Source: Escherichia coli (GTDB lineage Bacteria; Pseudomonadota; Gammaproteobacteria; Enterobacterales; Enterobacteriaceae). From it: 64,000 bases of DNA. Positions 1 to 28,758 of the stretch are shown one piece after another; position 1 is the stretch's first letter, and the number at the start of each line of letters is the position of its first letter. The DNA is taken from the NCBI RefSeq assembly GCF_003018255.1, contig NZ_CP027440.1; one strand, 5' to 3'. The notes under the pieces are model-generated. The model was given only the letters and a program-made list of their open reading frames with translations, ran no database searches and was not told the DNA's origin. Made by a program: the position numbers and the translations under genes.

Positions 1-159
1 AACGCTGCGTCGAGCAGCTGGCGAACTGGCATAAAGAGCTGGAGGAGTATAAGAACGCCTCCCGGATTGATATTAAACCGTCACGGGAATATGCCAGCAC
101 AATCATGAACGCTATCTGGACTGGCGAGCCGAGTGTGATTTACGGCAACGTCCGTAACG
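1..159 (+). pseudogene. melA: melA alpha-galactosidase (GH4), upstream part of reading frame, interrupted by prophage insertion at ~159/160
   Basis: Frame 3 reads ...NAIWTGEPSVIYGNVRN then V-stop inside prophage end; same frame resumes at 39000 as NDGLIDNLPQG...DWLPGWLHR*. Confidence 0.7.
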
Positions 160-176
160 TATAGCGCGGCGATTTT

Positions 177-242
177 TTTGATACCGATTTGCATTTCATT
201 TGATACCGCTGAAAAACGCCGATACGCAACTTATTTGATACT
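177..242. repeat. Right-end transposase-binding site cluster (three TTTGATAC(C) repeats)
   Basis: tttgataccg at 177-186, ttgataccg at 199-207, tttgatact at 234-242; reverse complements occur at the other prophage end. Confidence 0.6.
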
Positions 243-287
243 AAATCGGCGCTTTTCTTTTGAGTTTTAGAATGAGTTTTTAAGCGC

Positions 288-1025
288 TCATTCACTCTCT
301 TTCAAACCAGTTTTAACTGTTTGTGGTTTTGGGTAAGGCTGGACTTTGAATAGCTTTGTGTTGAGGCGTTTTCTGGCCCTCTTGTTCAGAAACCGGATGT
401 AACGAAACTGTCGGAACTTATGCACACTGGCTCTGTCGATATTAGCCCTCAGATGTTCACCTCGTTGTCCGCCTCGTTTAATGGCACTCCTGCAAATCTC
501 GTGATACCACTCGCCATCAAGTTCATAGAATGTTGATTCATGGCTGCCTACATAATCAAAATTGCTTGCCTGATACACGACACCAAGACAGCCACAACGC
601 TCATCTGCAAACGACTGAACCCACTGTACCTGCGGATAAAGCTGCCTGATTAGCTTGAGCGCGTAACTGATTGCCCTTGATTCGGAGTTTCTCGGCATAC
701 AGTCATGCATCCATAGCCGGTTAAGCTCCATATATTCTCGGTTCTGCGTACCCGTTACGACGCGTGCACCACTGTTTGGGTTAAGGGCGTAACCCCATTG
801 CATTACGCCAACAAGTTCCCGTTCTGAAAATATACCCAGATGAAGGTAGGAATTATTTACGAAACGGTGGCTGTAATGTTTATTGACGATAACCAGTCTG
901 GCCAGCCAGCAACTTATTGTCTCAACCCGCAACTCACGGGAGCCATAACCAACGATATTGTCGTTATAGCGAATAAGTTCAGGCGTGCTGATGATACGGG
1001 ATGTGACTTGCTTTCTGTTCCCCAC
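288..1025 (-). CDS. mom: Mom-like DNA modification protein
   Basis: 245-aa ORF at the Mu right-end position, overlapping the 3' end of com as in Mu; assigned by position and resemblance to Mu Mom from memory. Confidence 0.8.
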
Positions 1026-1179
1026 GACAGGATTTCCTTGTGTATGTGGGGTGCTCTGTGGCGCTCGGAGATGTGATTTGATTGAGGGTTTTACAGCGCG
1101 GACATTTTACTTCCAGATAACTGAAACTGGCCCGTGCCAGTAGCTTATTGCAGTGTCGGCACCGTATGTTTCGATACAT
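979..1179 (-). CDS. com: Com zinc-finger translational activator of mom
   Basis: [14 protein letters not shown]...CPRCK matches Mu Com C4 zinc finger; ATG at 1179 preceded by AGGAGG; track start at 1224 is a TTG extension. Confidence 0.8.
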
Positions 1180-1380
1180 GGCCGCATAACCTCCTGCTTT
1201 GTTGTTGATGCCTTTCTCATGCAATCGATCGACAAAAACGATCGATTCGATTTGTTTAATTGATACAACAAATAGATTTAAAAGTCATCAACAATGATTC
1301 AGGGCGGTGATTATTTACTTAAAGAAACGAAGAGTTAGGTGGTGAAAACGATCATAAAATGATCATTTTATTGACTTTTT
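1180..1380 (-). promoter_or_regulatory. com-mom upstream regulatory region with clustered Dam (GATC) sites
   Basis: GATC at 1227, 1240, 1350 and 1361; palindrome cGATCAtaaaaTGATCa at 1349-1365; Mu Pmom is known to be controlled by Dam methylation of upstream GATC sites. Confidence 0.5.
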
Positions 1381-1585
1381 ATACAGTGAAGGTAGGATCG
1401 CGCGTATATGTAGTATGTTTCAAATCAACAGGATACTACATAAAAGGGAAACCCAGCATAGCTGGAACTATGCTGGGTCAATCTGTAAAAACTTGCATCA
1501 ATGCTTTACTTCGAGCTCGTGGCGTATCCTATGATATTCCCCGGTCTCCTGTAAAGCAGAGATGCATAAAAAGGAGATCTTTATC

Positions 1586-1756
1586 ATGGATAAAGAGCCT
1601 GTTTGCCCTGCCTGTAAGACTCCCTTACAGCTCATCTATCGCCGTTCTCGATCTCAAAATGGCAAGACATACAAACCAAAAAATGCTTCCTGTTTCAGGA
1701 TGCTGATATGTCCTGCCTGTTCTCCCCGGAGGGAAAATACACAAAACGTGCATTAA
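1586..1756 (+). CDS. Small zinc-ribbon protein (CPxC...CPxC), hypothetical
   Basis: 56-aa ORF MDKEPVCPACKTPL...LICPACS with AAGGAG Shine-Dalgarno 8 nt upstream of ATG; opposite strand to the late operon. Confidence 0.5.
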   Translation: MDKEPVCPACKTPLQLIYRRSRSQNGKTYKPKNASCFRMLICPACSPRRENTQNVH

Positions 1757-1794
1757 CAAATTCACCCGGCAGGGAAACCTGCCGGTCGGTATTG

Positions 1795-2040
1795 TTACAT
1801 CATAGTACCGTCAGTTCCGGGTTGAACCGGCTCTGGTTGCTCTACGGGTTGAGGCTCATTTTCCGTGCTGTTTTCAGCCGGAGAACGACCAACCATTCGG
1901 GCCAGCACTTCATCAACATATGCGTCGATTTGTGCCTCAAAATCCTTGCGAACCTGCGCCTTCAGCACGCGGTTCACTTCTTCAGAATAAAGTGCCTGTT
2001 TGACAAGCTCTTCAGTAACCGTGCCTTTAATCTCTGGCAT
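1795..2040 (-). CDS. Hypothetical acidic protein (81 aa), cargo
   Basis: ORF MPEIKGTVTEELVKQ... with Pro/Glu-rich C-terminus; downstream of esterase and small membrane gene on the same strand. Confidence 0.45.
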   Translation of the reverse strand: MPEIKGTVTEELVKQALYSEEVNRVLKAQVRKDFEAQIDAYVDEVLARMVGRSPAENSTENEPQPVEQPEPVQPGTDGTMM

Positions 2041-2075
2041 GAATATTCTCCTTTCCTTTTCTGGTTCACAAAAAA

Positions 2076-2255
2076 TTAAATCTGACCGGAGTCTTTCGGC
2101 TGCGGCATTACAGCACCGCTTTTTATCTTTTCCTCGGCAGCTGCATCAATTTTATTTCGAAAATAATTGCGAATAATTTTATAACCACCGCTGACAAGCA
2201 ACAGACAACAAACCACCGTGCAGAAATACAGCAGGCAGACGTTTATATATGTCAT
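2076..2255 (-). CDS. Small membrane protein (59 aa), hypothetical
   Basis: Hand translation MTYINVCLLYFCTVVCCLLLVSGGYKIIRNYFRNK...; N-terminal hydrophobic helix, GAGG SD upstream; below the 60-aa cutoff of the ORF track. Confidence 0.45.
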   Translation of the reverse strand: MTYINVCLLYFCTVVCCLLLVSGGYKIIRNYFRNKIDAAAEEKIKSGAVMPQPKDSGQI

Positions 2256-2312
2256 ATAAGCCTCACTCTTATTAACTGATGTTACAGCCGGATAAATTCC
2301 CGGCCGTCACGA

Positions 2313-4361
2313 TTATGCCGCAGGGGTATTAACCTCAAGGACAACGCTCTCAAAAGACACGCCATAAGTTGCCCCTTTGGTGACATCTGTCAGTGTCAGC
2401 GTATCTTTGGCAGGGGAAAGTGCATCTTTCACCATCTGGAATGCCTGGCCCGGAGTGCCATCCAGCACAGGCGTTACCTGGGCACTTCCCGCCGTAAACT
2501 TCAGGACAAGTGTATGCCACTGGTTATTGTAGGCTCCAAATGATCCCAGTTTCGTATTCCCCCCTGTTTTATGGTGCATCAGATTTAACTGGCCGCCTGT
2601 TGTCTGGAGATAATACGCCATCAGGAACGGTGTGCCTGTACCACTCATGGTTACACCTTCCGGGACCGTATCGGTGTGGAGGTAAATACCCAGAGCAAAC
2701 TGGCCTTCTTTTACTTCACCTGACAGACGGAATTTACAGGTCAACTGACCACCATGCTTCAGAAGTTCACCGGCTGCATCAGTTCCATGGGTAAGCGTCC
2801 AGGTTTTTCCGCTTTGTTTGGATACGGTCAACGCTTTACCTTCGTCCGTCAGCTGGATTGTACCATCTGTAATTTTCCAGCCCTGAGCCGGGGCTTCTCC
2901 TGCTGATGCTTTAAGTGAAAGCAGCGTACGGAGTGACGGGGATGTCGGATGGGGGGACTCACTGCCTCCTGGCTGACTACCTGTCGGCGCTTCCGGTTTC
3001 CCACCCGGCGCGGGCTGAGGCAGGGCTTCACCATCAGGGGCCACACCGGCAATAAATGCAGAGGTCAGACCTGCATATTTAAGAATTGCTGATGCAAAAC
3101 GATCTGAGACCAGAAAACGGCGCGCCCAGGAGCTAAAATGGGTTGCCCTGGATGCTGTTGTCCAGTTGCCATCTCCCCGTGATTCCGCACCATAATACCC
3201 GGCAGAAGCGATATCCGGGTCGTGCTCCGGCAGGTTGGTCGCGGTTTTATTACCGAACTCATCGTGCATCAGTGGAACAAAGTGAATGTTCTCGGAAGCC
3301 CGGTTTTTATATCCGCTATAAATGGTTTCATATGCCGCCGGGTTCTTCTCTTTCCAGTCATAGGTTGTGTCACCACATAACCACGGCACACTGTCTGATG
3401 AACCACCAATACACTGACCGGAGAAAGCACCAAGATCCGCACGGAATTTTTTCACCATCGCAGTAAACTGGGCACCATGCTGGGCCGGGGTCGCTTTAAG
3501 GTCTCCTTCCCCCTGAATCCATACGACAGATAACAGCACATTCTTTGGATTCGCCTCAAGTGCCGCTTTAGTTCGACTGACAAGATCCTGATACAGTGGG
3601 GTATCCACTCCCCAGCGTAGTGACGCCTCGGCTGCACCACTTGCCGGATCGAATGAGCCAACTGCGCCGGTTGTAAAAGCAGAGCCGCCACGGGCACAGG
3701 GAACCAGTAAAATCCCGGCATCAGCAGGAATCACCGGTAATACTTTTTTCGCAATATGAAGTCCCTGCCCCACACAACCATACTGCCCTTTTTTCAGGTC
3801 TGCTTTTGGATGGTTCAGCAGACTCATATTCTGAACATCATGAAGGCAGTGATCTGCTGGAATGATTTCATTGTATTTGCAGGGAATACCTCCGGGGGTT
3901 TGTGTATTCCTGCGTGCCAGCTGCATAATACGTGGATCAGGACGATCATAAGAATCCGGAAGGGGCAACCCTTCACCATAAGATGAAGCATTGGACTGGC
4001 CGGCTATAACAATCACGTAATACCAGGAAGGGGAGCTGGAAGCAGTTTCATTTCCTGACGGACGGGTATGTGTTTCAGCATTATCCCAGTCTGACGGTTC
4101 AGCAGTACCGGCAACATCAGCACTTAACGGAATGACCGCACCAATACCCGCTCCGGTAATTTCCACACTCGGATCACCGGATACTGGCCTTACCCACAGG
4201 CAATCCCGTGTATTAAAACTGATGAGACAGTCAGCAAATGTCATTCCTCCTTTTGTTTCGGCCGGAGGAAAGGGAGCCTCAAGAAATGCCGCTGTACCAC
4301 CGGAAACTTTAACAGTAAAGTTTCCGGGCATTGATGATAGTTGAACCCATTTGGACGTCAT
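2313..4361 (-). CDS. SGNH/SASA-family esterase (sialate O-acetylesterase-like) with Pro-rich linker and C-terminal beta-sandwich lectin-like domain; NanS-p-like
   Basis: 682 aa; GQSN nucleophile motif (VIAGQSNASSYG), WIQGEGD block, PQPAPGGKPEAPTGSQPGG linker, Gly/Thr-rich C-terminal domain. Confidence 0.55.
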   Translation of the reverse strand: MTSKWVQLSSMPGNFTVKVSGGTAAFLEAPFPPAETKGGMTFADCLISFNTRDCLWVRPVSGDPSVEITGAGIGAVIPLSADVAGTAEPSDWDNAETHTRPSGNETASSSPSWYYVIVIAGQSNASSYGEGLPLPDSYDRPDPRIMQLARRNTQTPGGIPCKYNEIIPADHCLHDVQNMSLLNHPKADLKKGQYGCVGQGLHIAKKVLPVIPADAGILLVPCARGGSAFTTGAVGSFDPASGAAEASLRWGVDTPLYQDLVSRTKAALEANPKNVLLSVVWIQGEGDLKATPAQHGAQFTAMVKKFRADLGAFSGQCIGGSSDSVPWLCGDTTYDWKEKNPAAYETIYSGYKNRASENIHFVPLMHDEFGNKTATNLPEHDPDIASAGYYGAESRGDGNWTTASRATHFSSWARRFLVSDRFASAILKYAGLTSAFIAGVAPDGEALPQPAPGGKPEAPTGSQPGGSESPHPTSPSLRTLLSLKASAGEAPAQGWKITDGTIQLTDEGKALTVSKQSGKTWTLTHGTDAAGELLKHGGQLTCKFRLSGEVKEGQFALGIYLHTDTVPEGVTMSGTGTPFLMAYYLQTTGGQLNLMHHKTGGNTKLGSFGAYNNQWHTLVLKFTAGSAQVTPVLDGTPGQAFQMVKDALSPAKDTLTLTDVTKGATYGVSFESVVLEVNTPAA

Positions 4362-4460
4362 AATAATCAGCCTGTTCCTGAATAAACTGAATTATCATAT
4401 CCACAGACCGATAAACGCCATTTTGCGTTAATTCAGTAAAGGCCCAACAAAGAGAGCGTC

Positions 4461-5021
4461 TTATTTTTCCGAAACGCTCGCAGGATAATAACGATAAAGG
4501 GTTGAAAGACCGATATCAAAAATAAGTGCCACCTGTCTTCGACTGACACCCCCGGCCAGTAAACGCCCGACCTGCTCGTATTGTTCCTGCGTGAGACGGC
4601 GGGGTCTGCCGCCGGTTCGTCCCCTTTCACGGGCAGCTGCAAGACCAGCCCGTGTCCGTTCGACAATTAATTCACGCTCCATTTCTGCCAGCGCACCCAT
4701 TATGTGAAAAAAGAAACGCCCCATGGGGGTTGACGTATCAATGTTGTCAGTAAGACTACGAAAATTTATCCCCTGTTGCTGTAATTCATCTGTCAGCGCA
4801 ACAAGGTGGCGCATACTGCGCCCCAGCCTGTCCAGTTTCCAGACCATCAGTGTGTCACCGGGTTTTAGTTTCTTCAGTGCCCGCTTCAGTCCCGGCCGCT
4901 GTGTCGTTTTACCACTCATTTTGTCTTCAAAAATCTGCTCACATCCTGCACATTCCAGCGCATTTCTTTGTAAACCGGTGTTCTGGTCATTTGTTGATAC
5001 GCGTATATAGCCAATCAGCAT
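4461..5021 (-). CDS. gin: Gin/Hin/Pin-family serine DNA invertase
   Basis: MLIGYIRVSTNDQNTGLQRNAL...GRFFFHIMGALAEMEREL closely matches Mu Gin. Confidence 0.95.
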   Translation of the reverse strand: MLIGYIRVSTNDQNTGLQRNALECAGCEQIFEDKMSGKTTQRPGLKRALKKLKPGDTLMVWKLDRLGRSMRHLVALTDELQQQGINFRSLTDNIDTSTPMGRFFFHIMGALAEMERELIVERTRAGLAAARERGRTGGRPRRLTQEQYEQVGRLLAGGVSRRQVALIFDIGLSTLYRYYPASVSEK

Positions 5022-5075
5022 GTATTTACCTTCCTTAAAAAGAGGTGAAAATGCCTTTTAAAACAGATATACGGT

Positions 5076-5101
5076 ATCCCTGAAAACCTCGGTTTACGGG
5101 A
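5076..5101. other. gix-like recombination site (gin-proximal)
   Basis: tccctgaaaacc-tc-ggtttacgggaa resembles Mu gix (TTATCCAAAACCTCGGTTTACAGGAA); 28-bp perfect inverted match with 6437-6464. Confidence 0.7.
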
Positions 5102-5471
5102 AACGGTAAATAAGGCTGCTGATGCCCTGCCATCGGGTGGAACCGCCGTGGCAGCAAACAGACTCGCCACCCCAAGAAATATTAATGGCGTTCCTTTTGA
5201 CGGAACGCAGGATATCAACATCACGTCAGGAATGACGCAGTCAACCGCAGATGGCCGGTATGTACAGAATGTTCAGCTTGGAGCACAGAGCTATCATTCA
5301 CCCGGAGGCAATGAAATATCATGGAATTACAGCGCACCTTCCGGTTGTATGCTTTCCGGTATTAACGTGCAGGAAACCGGCTCCCGGTCTGCGGACAATA
5401 TCGGTGGGGTCTATTATCGCCCGGTTCAGATTTATATTAATAATGCCTGGAGAACGGTAAGTTCAGTGTAA
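5091..5471 (+). CDS. Alternative tail-fibre C-terminal segment (Sv'), promoterless, expressed only after inversion
   Basis: Plus-strand frame GLRETVNKAADALPSGGTAVAANRLATPRNINGVPFDGTQDINITSGMTQS... parallels the C-terminus of the tail fibre on the minus strand. Confidence 0.65.
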   Translation, partial: GLRETVNKAADALPSGGTAVAANRLATPRNINGVPFDGTQDINITSGMTQSTADGRYVQNVQLGAQSYHSPGGNEISWNYSAPSGCMLSGINVQETGSRSADNIGGVYYRPVQIYINNAWRTVSSV

Positions 5472-20358: not shown

Positions 20359-20534
20359 TCCGGCAGCATAGGCCGGGAATTTTCAGGGCGGGTTTTGCGG
20401 GATTTCAGGAAGTGCTTCCAGGGGAAAAATACAAAGGCGCTTCACGCAGATTTTAAAGCCCGTTAAATACAGGTTAGAAAATCACGACACGCGCCTGAAG
20501 GGGGTAAGGTAATGCATTTGCATACCTTAAACAA
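20359..20534 (-). promoter_or_regulatory. Intergenic region upstream of I-like gene, candidate late promoter/terminator
   Basis: 176-bp gap in an otherwise packed operon; near-palindrome aaggtaatgcatttgcataccttaa at ~20497-20526. Confidence 0.3.
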
Positions 20535-21008: not shown

Positions 21009-21129
21009 ATTGCCTCCGTATAAAATATGAATATAAAATAAGCAGGCGGTCAGTGTACGCTTAACTGGTAAAGTCGGTGCCTGCCTCCGGGTGGATCATG
21101 TATGCGGGTTCGACCCCCGCCACTGACCG

Positions 21130-28262: not shown

Positions 28263-28300
28263 GTTACGCTGTCTCATGATGTTCTCTGAGTCAGCGTAAC
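28263..28300 (-). promoter_or_regulatory. Inverted repeat between mor/C-like gene and lys (candidate late promoter activator site or terminator)
   Basis: gttacgctg (28263-28271) ... cagcgtaac (28292-28300), 9-bp arms. Confidence 0.3.
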
Positions 28301-28332
28301 GGTGAAGGAGAGGCGGCAGGCTTTGCGGAATA

Positions 28333-28758
28333 TCAGAAAAGTGGCGGTTGCGTTCTTGCCAGATGCAGACGGCGCTGTTCGCGTATGACGGTATAAATCT
28401 GGGTTTCTGACATCCGGTAATGGCGGCGAAGGGATTCAATTTTCTCGCCCCGGTCCCAGCGCGAAAATATCTCATTGTTTCGCAGCTCGGCAAAGAGAGA
28501 TTCCCCGACCGGCAGGTAATAACCCCGTCCGCCCATATAGGCTGCCTGAGCCGCAGCCACCTTGCGTGCCAGTTTACCGGCCAGTACCGGCTCAATCCCC
28601 TGACGCTGAAGTTCTGCGCCGGTGACTTCAACCAGTTCTGACAGGGTCCGCGGCCAGTTCTTTTTGAGAACATCATCAGGGATGTCATCAAGGCGGTCGA
28701 TAAGGGCGTGCAGTTGCTCACTGTCACCACCAAACATGCTCATCTGAGTTTCTGCCAT
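28333..28758 (-). CDS. Mor/C-family transcriptional activator
   Basis: 141 aa with C-terminal HTH; resembles Mu Mor. Confidence 0.8.
   Translation of the reverse strand: MAETQMSMFGGDSEQLHALIDRLDDIPDDVLKKNWPRTLSELVEVTGAELQRQGIEPVLAGKLARKVAAAQAAYMGGRGYYLPVGESLFAELRNNEIFSRWDRGEKIESLRRHYRMSETQIYTVIREQRRLHLARTQPPLF

Follow-up and report, generated by a model that had tools for sequence, protein, structure and literature searches.

The stretch of DNA analysed here (the window) comprises 64,000 nucleotides of Escherichia coli contig NZ_CP027440.1 (RefSeq assembly GCF_003018255.1) and carries a Mu-like prophage of the Sp18 type. The analysis concerned the control region of com and mom, two overlapping genes at the right end of this prophage, where GATC sites occur in a proximal pair (1227 and 1240) and a distal pair (1350 and 1361). 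The region probably holds two back-to-back control elements, a Dam-sensitive operator for the host regulator OxyR that would serve com-mom (1223-1273) and a rightward promoter (1345-1399). The genes and the features closest to them are as follows.

288-1025, minus strand: mom, a DNA-modification gene of 245 amino acids (open reading frame listing, DNA identity and RefSeq name)
979-1179, minus strand: com, 66 amino acids, with a CxxC...CxxC zinc finger, a 'Com family' protein in RefSeq
1205-1235, minus strand: the likeliest com-mom promoter, putative, with -35 TTGTCG at 1230-1235, a 19-bp spacer, -10 CATCAA at 1205-1210 and a start near 1198
1223-1247, no strand assigned: the proximal operator half-site, a perfect 9+9 inverted repeat, AATCGATCG-N7-CGATCGATT, with GATC 1227 and GATC 1240 at 13-bp spacing
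1259-1273, no strand assigned: a second OxyR-like half-site, reading ATTT-gttgtat-CAAT on the minus strand, without GATC and matching 7/10 consensus positions

Positions 1-159 of the window belong to E. coli melA (alpha-galactosidase), and the right end of the prophage lies at about 160, inserted inside that gene. Of 5,426 complete E. coli genomes, 232 carried this Sp18-type prophage, in each case with at least 90% identity; its insertion sites lie in many different genes across genomes, as expected of a transposable phage, and many of the carriers are O157 and other Shiga toxin-producing E. coli strains. The mom gene of the window showed 71% DNA identity to mom of Mu and D108, and its product is named in RefSeq either 'Mom family adenine methylcarbamoylation protein' or 'protein mom'. 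The com gene has a Shine-Dalgarno sequence, AGGAGG, at 1190-1195 and overlaps the start of mom by 47 nt, and an overlapping com-mom operon of this kind, located at a transposable phage's right end, is the arrangement of Mu. Since both genes are on the minus strand, their control region is situated to the right of 1179 and reads leftward.

A sequence-only reading of positions 1180-1380 had taken them for a com-mom control region and compared them with Mu, and the gene context described above supported this for a Mu-like prophage. The GATC positions that it gave were also exact (1227-1230, 1240-1243, 1350-1353 and 1361-1364), and a fifth GATC was found at 1396-1399. Its claim of a perfect palindrome at 1349-1365 did not hold: this segment reads cGATCAtaaaaTGATCA, with C and not T at base 1349, and is part of a direct repeat in which AAAAyGATCAT occurs twice at 11-bp spacing (1345-1366). 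The true palindromes are the inverted repeat at 1223-1247, which contains both proximal GATCs, and the 16-bp perfect palindrome TAAAATGATCATTTTA at 1355-1370, centred on GATC 1361. The density of GATC in the window was ordinary (243 sites, 252 expected). Four sites within 134 bp occurred in three instances, and random placement gave at least one such instance in 95% of trials; five sites within 169 bp occurred once, the chance of this anywhere in the window being 54%. The Poisson P of the cluster, if the region had been specified beforehand, was 0.002 to 0.0006. The spacing GATC-N9-GATC was present once in the window, where 1.09 pairs per 64 kb were expected by chance. GATC clustering was therefore rejected as evidence in itself, because it is not significant window-wide; the non-chance signal is the position and conservation of the 13-bp pair.

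The inverted repeat at 1223-1247 includes an OxyR-type half-site, ATCG-N7-CGAT, at 1228-1242, and the two GATCs fall in its two arms, so that it reads gATCG-N7-CGATc. The whole window was scored against the OxyR dimer-site consensus, ATAGnTnnnAnCTAT, on 20 defined positions (10 per half-site). The half-site at 1228-1242 scored 7/10, and the second half-site, which has TATCAAT where agn43 has GATCAAT, lies 31 bp upstream of it at 1259-1273. At this 31-bp offset the two together scored 14/20, a value reached by just 2 of the approximately 64,000 window positions; by the same scoring at 31 or 32 bp, Mu reached 14/20 at 31 bp and agn43 reached 16/20 at 32 bp. At a 22-bp offset, nine window positions scored at least 13/20, and four of these, among them the sole 14, fall in 1228-1259. 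The canonical centre-to-centre spacing of half-sites for reduced OxyR is about 32 bp, and half-sites of opvAB that match 7 of the 10 consensus positions are functional (PMC4856963). The segment 1228-1273 thus has two half-sites at the spacing of about 31-32 bp that characterizes OxyR operators, together with a GATC pair 13 bp apart inside the half-site arms, as in the Dam-sensitive operators of this class. In addition, the 23-nt core ATCGATCGTTTTTGTCGATCGAT matched the operator core of agn43 at 21 of 23 positions, compared with 19 of 23 for the Mu core against agn43, and none of 2000 shuffles reached the score of the alignment with the agn43 core.

The com-mom loci of related phages supported this assignment. 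Eighty loci were taken from viral contigs, and GATC positions were set relative to the com ATG. Every com locus of the window type had the pair at -64/-51, it was present in all 14 distinct upstream sequences of the window clade, and the half-site at 1223-1247 was unchanged in all loci of that clade. The pair was kept despite other flanking sequences in M3-type loci (-64/-51, 9 loci) and in L010 (-70/-57), and likewise in L033 (-66/-53), L034 (-65/-52) and L035 (-67/-54), in which Mom is 79-83% identical to that of the window. In L034 and L035 the pair is also preceded by a third GATC, exactly 31 bp upstream. When the loci were aligned, cGATC...cGATCGAT appeared as a conserved island between diverged flanks. 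Among the 44 distinct 130-nt regions upstream of com, taken over all com types, 42 had at least two GATCs and 28 had the 13-bp pair, and no 13-bp pair was found elsewhere in the same loci (157 kb). Conservation together with the regulated gene across diverged relatives is a further mark of OxyR operators. From its form, spacing, conservation and likeness to validated operators, the proximal pair is predicted to be an OxyR-type half-site, and we infer that 1223-1273 binds OxyR in a methylation-sensitive manner.

The relation of this operator to the com-mom promoter was then considered. The hexamer CATCAA lies at -31 from the com ATG, close to the -33 of the Mu -10 TAAGAT, and is the sole site with a Mu-like distance. 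Sister alleles have TATCAT (5/6) or TATCAA at this place, which together with TTGTCG and the 19-bp spacer makes the top-scoring promoter of the region. We infer that the com-mom promoter lies here. With a start near 1198, the GATCs would be at about -45 and -32 and the operator at -77 to -31. The proximal GATC is separated from the com ATG by 47 bp, as against 74 bp in Mu, which leaves no room for an activator site, so that the operator probably overlaps the -35 of a weak com-mom promoter.

A search for the late activator and its targets revealed a single gene of the Mor/C family in the prophage (28333-28758), located just before lys. Two regions on the minus strand, Plys (28276-28336) and PI (20367-20408, upstream of the protease gene I), have in common the 22-nt box CTGAwATyCCGCAAArCCyGCC, and in both of them ATyCC is followed by a TAyGCT -10 after 33 nt. 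These regions are predicted to be, and probably are, late promoters of this phage. No copy of the box was found near com or near the P gene; the next best match had five mismatches and was on the wrong strand.

The distal GATC pair belongs to a different set of features.

1345-1370, no strand assigned: the distal element, with the direct repeat AAAAyGATCAT twice (GATC 1350 and GATC 1361, 11-bp spacing) and the palindrome TAAAATGATCATTTTA
1371-1398, plus strand: P(+), a rightward sigma-70 promoter reported by the promoter scan, with -35 TTGACT at 1371-1376, a 16-bp spacer and -10 TAGGAT at 1393-1398
1407-1442 and 1451-1478, plus strand: two strong hairpins in the leader of the P(+) transcript (folding, z = -5.6)
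1586-1756, plus strand: an open reading frame of 56 amino acids with a zinc ribbon (CPAC...CPAC) and a strong Shine-Dalgarno sequence, a conserved gene of an accessory module

The distal element is the A/T-rich tract immediately upstream of P(+), which faces away from com; the distal pair abuts the -35 of this promoter and GATC 1396 overlaps its -10. The direct repeat sets A-tracts at 11-bp intervals right before that -35, as is typical of UP-like or curved promoter elements. As an OxyR site the distal pair scored 6/10 at best, and its 11-bp spacing means that both GATCs cannot occupy the arms of one half-site. The pair starts 123 bp from the proximal pair, outside any 32-bp register, and is missing from the M3-type loci (9 loci), L010, L034 and L035, all of which carry com-mom and the proximal pair. 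Counterparts of P(+) are kept with changes in L033 (TTGACT...TAAGAT) and L034 (TTGACG...TATAAT); the hairpin arms differ in L034 yet still pair, and the zinc-ribbon gene is kept in both relatives with 43% identity. Read on the minus strand, the second hairpin (1451-1478) is a leftward terminator. A longer reading frame of 154 amino acids (1294-1756, plus strand, start at 1294, a hypothetical protein in RefSeq) also spans the distal pair, and it was considered and rejected as an account of the pair: it is frameshifted here and in most relatives, by different frameshifts, it is a frameshifted pseudogene in the RefSeq annotation of the identical strain 142, and its conservation at the protein level is limited to the zinc-ribbon end. 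Searches with this frame gave a weak PHROG match without known function (phrog_9584) and no match in NCBIfam. Since the frame is disrupted, the distal pair is best read as non-coding, and no convincing further copies of the distal motif that would suggest a regulon were found in the window. The best explanation of the distal pair and its palindrome is that they belong to the accessory module of P(+) and not to the mom switch.

On the minus strand, opposite the leader, a promoter-like site is present (TTTACA at 1550-1555, an 18-bp spacer and TAGGAT at 1526-1531). On that strand the terminator at 1450-1479 is followed by TTTCCCTTTT, and together with the promoter-like site it may give rise to a cis-antisense RNA with a length of about 75 nt (z = -4.1). 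An Rfam search of positions 1-5200 returned nothing at threshold.

Taken together, the locus looks like a rearranged version of the Dam/OxyR switch that keeps the toxic phage gene mom silent. In the proposed mechanism, when GATC 1227 and GATC 1240 are unmethylated, a reduced OxyR tetramer, supplied by the host, would bind as a repressor to the half-sites 31 bp apart, and RNA polymerase would be kept off the com-mom promoter. Methylation of both GATCs by Dam would exclude OxyR and make transcription of com-mom possible, after which Com would still be required for the translation of mom. With the operator lying over the -35 of a weak promoter, repression would most likely be simple occlusion, much as OxyR acts from the repressing OxyR(BC) site in gtr of P22. 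The segment 1345-1399 would in turn provide the upstream A/T-rich tract and the core of P(+), driving the structured leader and the zinc-ribbon gene of a mosaic accessory module.

Several observations weigh against this interpretation. The -10 CATCAA is weak, lacking key T residues, and was not reported by the promoter scan, and L033-L035 have their best -10 (TATACT or TATAGT) at a place 9-10 bp farther upstream, which indicates that the promoter position is not clearly fixed across the clade. The upstream half-site at 1259-1273 matches just 7/10 positions and has no GATC. The failure to find a late-activator site near com leaves late-phase timing unexplained by the model. A Smith-Waterman comparison of Mu with 1180-1400 was made as a direct test of homology and gave just ATCAATTAAA in the operator (P = 0.04) and TGATG..TTTTAA in the promoter (P = 0.26), so that homology with Mu rests on form and position and not on sequence; the same alignments were too weak to claim an order of modules swapped relative to Mu, and that proposal was dropped. 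The distal block is identical in 12 close variants, which allows for a function at P(+), perhaps a Dam-sensitive one, that com-mom does not need. Finally, no binding, methylation or transcript data for this phage were found in the literature searched, and neither were studies of Sp18-type mom control or of unmethylated GATCs at the com-mom locus.

The placement of the promoter admits an alternative in which transcription starts upstream of the operator, from the following candidate.

1274-1313, minus strand: alternative upstream promoter, with -10 TAAATC at 1274-1279 and a C-box-like segment, ATAATCACCGCCC, at 1301-1313

With a start near 1267, the operator would then cover the start and the early transcribed region (about -6 to +40), as at agn43, where OxyR extends from the -10 to about +35 and the best-scoring promoter (TTGTCC...TAGAAT), taken with the annotated isrC start, puts the GATCs at about +1, +20 and +33. 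Such a geometry fits the lack of a good -10 between operator and com in the window, and also the locus L039 (an IMG/VR contig, 2280-2330), in which only 11 nt separate the end of a Mu-like GATC triple (18 + 13 bp) from the com ATG and no promoter is possible downstream; there the promoter must overlap or precede the operator, so that the operator-promoter geometry varies within the family. The late strand of the prophage, moreover, has just two copies of the sequence TTTAAA(A)TC, this one and one in the G-I intergenic region that contains PI, and a TAAAAT or TATAAT hexamer is present upstream of the operator in the M3-type loci, L010, L033 and L035. The distance from hexamer to operator, however, differs among subtypes (about 0 to 50 bp), TAAATC is without the final T of a -10, and the likeness of the segment to the Mu Pmom core was not significant. 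An upstream promoter with a Mu-like C box was at first the favoured solution and was downgraded because 9 of 12 close variants have TCAATC in place of TAAATC and the box varies; we now regard an upstream start as doubtful. That both GATC pairs work as one composite mom switch, through alternative OxyR sites as in gtr and opvAB or through looping, appears improbable. In its favour, neither pair is more than 190 bp upstream of com, the 12 variants all have the same distal block, AAAACGATCA resembles the surroundings of GATC I of agn43 (P about 0.014), and gtr is a precedent for a switch with two pairs (PMC2909390); but the distal pair has a spacing unfit for a single half-site, a best score of 6/10 and a place beside the -35 of an oppositely directed promoter, it is absent from relatives that retain com-mom and the proximal pair, and the 123 bp between the starts of the pairs fits no 32-bp register, compared with 64 bp in gtr. 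A switch of the pap type, governed by Lrp and Dam through two GATCs about 102 bp apart, was also considered.

Doubts may also be raised about the nature of the proximal repeat itself. Its perfect 9+9 symmetry is more than OxyR requires and its centre lies near -37 of the candidate promoter, which would suit a site for a phage dimer such as a late activator of the Mor/C type, while a predicted RNA fold of -10 to -11 kcal/mol and a terminator-like flag on the plus strand would suit a hairpin or terminator. The same perfect repeat, the outermost base apart, nevertheless forms the OxyR operator of agn43 in the context of a host gene; the late promoters Plys and PI use a quite different box; and the hairpin has a z of only about -2 and no U-run on the com-sense strand. 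A site for something other than OxyR was accordingly judged very improbable. Least credible of all is a chance cluster of GATCs in A/T-rich intergenic DNA with no regulatory role: clusters of this kind are expected somewhere in 64 kb, and so is one 13-bp pair per window, but chance does not account for a position and spacing kept across diverged com-mom loci, for the lack of any such pair in the surrounding 157 kb or for the 21/23 identity to a validated operator. The Dam-sensitive OxyR operator over the -35 of com-mom, with P(+) as a neighbour, is the interpretation retained here.

Between gin (4461-5021, minus strand) and com, the prophage has three genes that are not present in Mu (segment 1795-5021, minus strand).

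2313-4361, minus strand: a DUF6645 protein of 682 amino acids (phrog_143)
2076-2255, minus strand: a DUF1378 protein
1795-2040, minus strand: a DUF826 protein

The segment from the DUF826 gene to com is mosaic, and strains M3 and 102651 carry different small plus-strand genes there. Elsewhere in the prophage, RefSeq annotates a 'tRNA-OTHER' at about 21049-21128 (L003 21426-21505), on the strand opposite to the late genes and between the head morphogenesis and virion morphogenesis genes.

Dam/OxyR control of Mu mom is a classic case of bacterial epigenetic gene control, and this prophage family appears to have the known parts of the switch in a rearranged form, with a two-GATC operator of the agn43 type set against or over the promoter and no room for an activator site. 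If confirmed, one form of operator would be common to mom, agn43 and gtr, which are phage and prophage-borne genes, and the position of the operator relative to the promoter could move while its role stays. The practical gain would be modest, namely a better annotation of the control region of a toxic gene and the reassignment of the second GATC pair to a different promoter. A more speculative consequence follows from an operator near-identical to that of agn43 lying on the -35 with no recognisable late-activator site, since mom could then be phase-variable. We give little credence to mom being a heritable ON/OFF gene in lysogens instead of a strictly late lytic one, with the neighbouring P(+), which has GATCs at its -10 and upstream edge, perhaps co-regulated by Dam or SeqA; if this were true, a minority of cells would have Mom-modified DNA.

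Dam/OxyR switches are established for Mu mom, and agn43, gtr and opvAB belong to the same class (PMC2909390, PMC4856963, PMC4872104). In Mu, the GATCs are at 1160, 1178 and 1191 of locus L001, corresponding to -109, -91 and -78 from com (18 + 13 bp). The window resembles Mu in the overlapping com-mom genes at the phage's right end, in a 13-bp pair (GATC2/3 of Mu) placed in an ATCG-N7-(C/A)GAT half-site, in a second half-site 31 bp upstream with the same OxyR score of 14/20, and, for the putative promoter, in a candidate -10 some 31-33 nt ahead of the com ATG, preceded across a 19-bp spacer by a poor -35 (PMC3378877). The 74 bp between GATC3 and com in Mu accommodate the site for activator C together with a poor -35, a run of T and the -10 TAAGAT (PMC3378877, PMC4461284). 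In contrast, the window has two GATCs where Mu has three, with TATC at the position of GATC-I; its operator is 27 bp nearer to com (-51 vs -78); no room for a C site exists between operator and -10; the spacer has no T6 run; the phage has a single Mor/C-family gene, and the box of Plys and PI is not found at com; and the interval from gin to com holds about 3 kb of additional genes. The sequence-only reading, which had proposed a variant methylation-sensitive switch of two GATC pairs with a spacing unlike that of Mu, was thus partly supported. A GATC-containing element of the Mu mom Dam/OxyR kind is present, judged by sequence form, and both the locus and the class of mechanism stood for the proximal pair; the union of both pairs in one device did not, given the 11-bp spacing, the 6/10 score and the poor conservation of the distal pair. 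As for spacing, the proximal 13 bp equal the distance from GATC2 to GATC3 of Mu, and the actual differences, as read from the sequence, are the two GATCs, the operator 27 bp nearer to com and the lack of room for, or of a recognisable, C-type activator site.

The operator itself closely matched that of agn43 of E. coli K-12, in which the GATCs are at 218, 237 and 250 of locus L088, with GATC II and GATC III 13 bp apart. The two have a near-identical core, ATCGATCGTTT(A/T)T(A/G)TCGATCGAT (21/23), the same perfect 9+9 inverted repeat with its 13-bp GATC pair, and an upstream ATCAAT motif. At agn43, OxyR is purely a repressor and is excluded by methylation (PMC2909390, PMC4872104). The differences are that agn43 carries one more GATC, 19 bp upstream of the pair, that it is a host-type adhesin gene with heritable phase variation, and that its operator spans from the -10 into the transcribed leader, a geometry that the window would have just in the case of a promoter upstream of the operator.

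In its predicted placement, the operator resembles that of P22 gtr, which likewise has ATCG-N7-CGAT with a GATC pair at 13-bp spacing, some 20-21 nt upstream of the -10, and a partner half-site 31-32 bp upstream. GATC3 and GATC4 of gtr are at -46 and -33, and repression comes from OxyR at the BC site, which covers the -35 (PMC2909390); the corresponding positions predicted for the window, about -45 and -32, agree within one base. The gtr operator differs in having a third half-site (A) with a second 13-bp pair in a 32-bp register, an arrangement that lets OxyR take alternative positions and produces phase variation. Both gtr pairs have 13-bp spacing, their first GATCs are 64 bp apart, and the middle half-site lies between them (PMC2909390). 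The second pair of the window, with 11-bp spacing, 123 bp away, out of the 32-bp register and at another promoter, does not reproduce this two-pair arrangement of gtr and opvAB. An ATCAAT motif beside GATC or TATC is common to agn43 (L088 206-253), P22 gtr (L090 3060-3140), Mu (L001 1148-1197) and the window (1223-1273). Along with ATCG-N7-CGAT, this common motif hints at a shared origin of, or a shared constraint on, these phage and prophage-borne operators.

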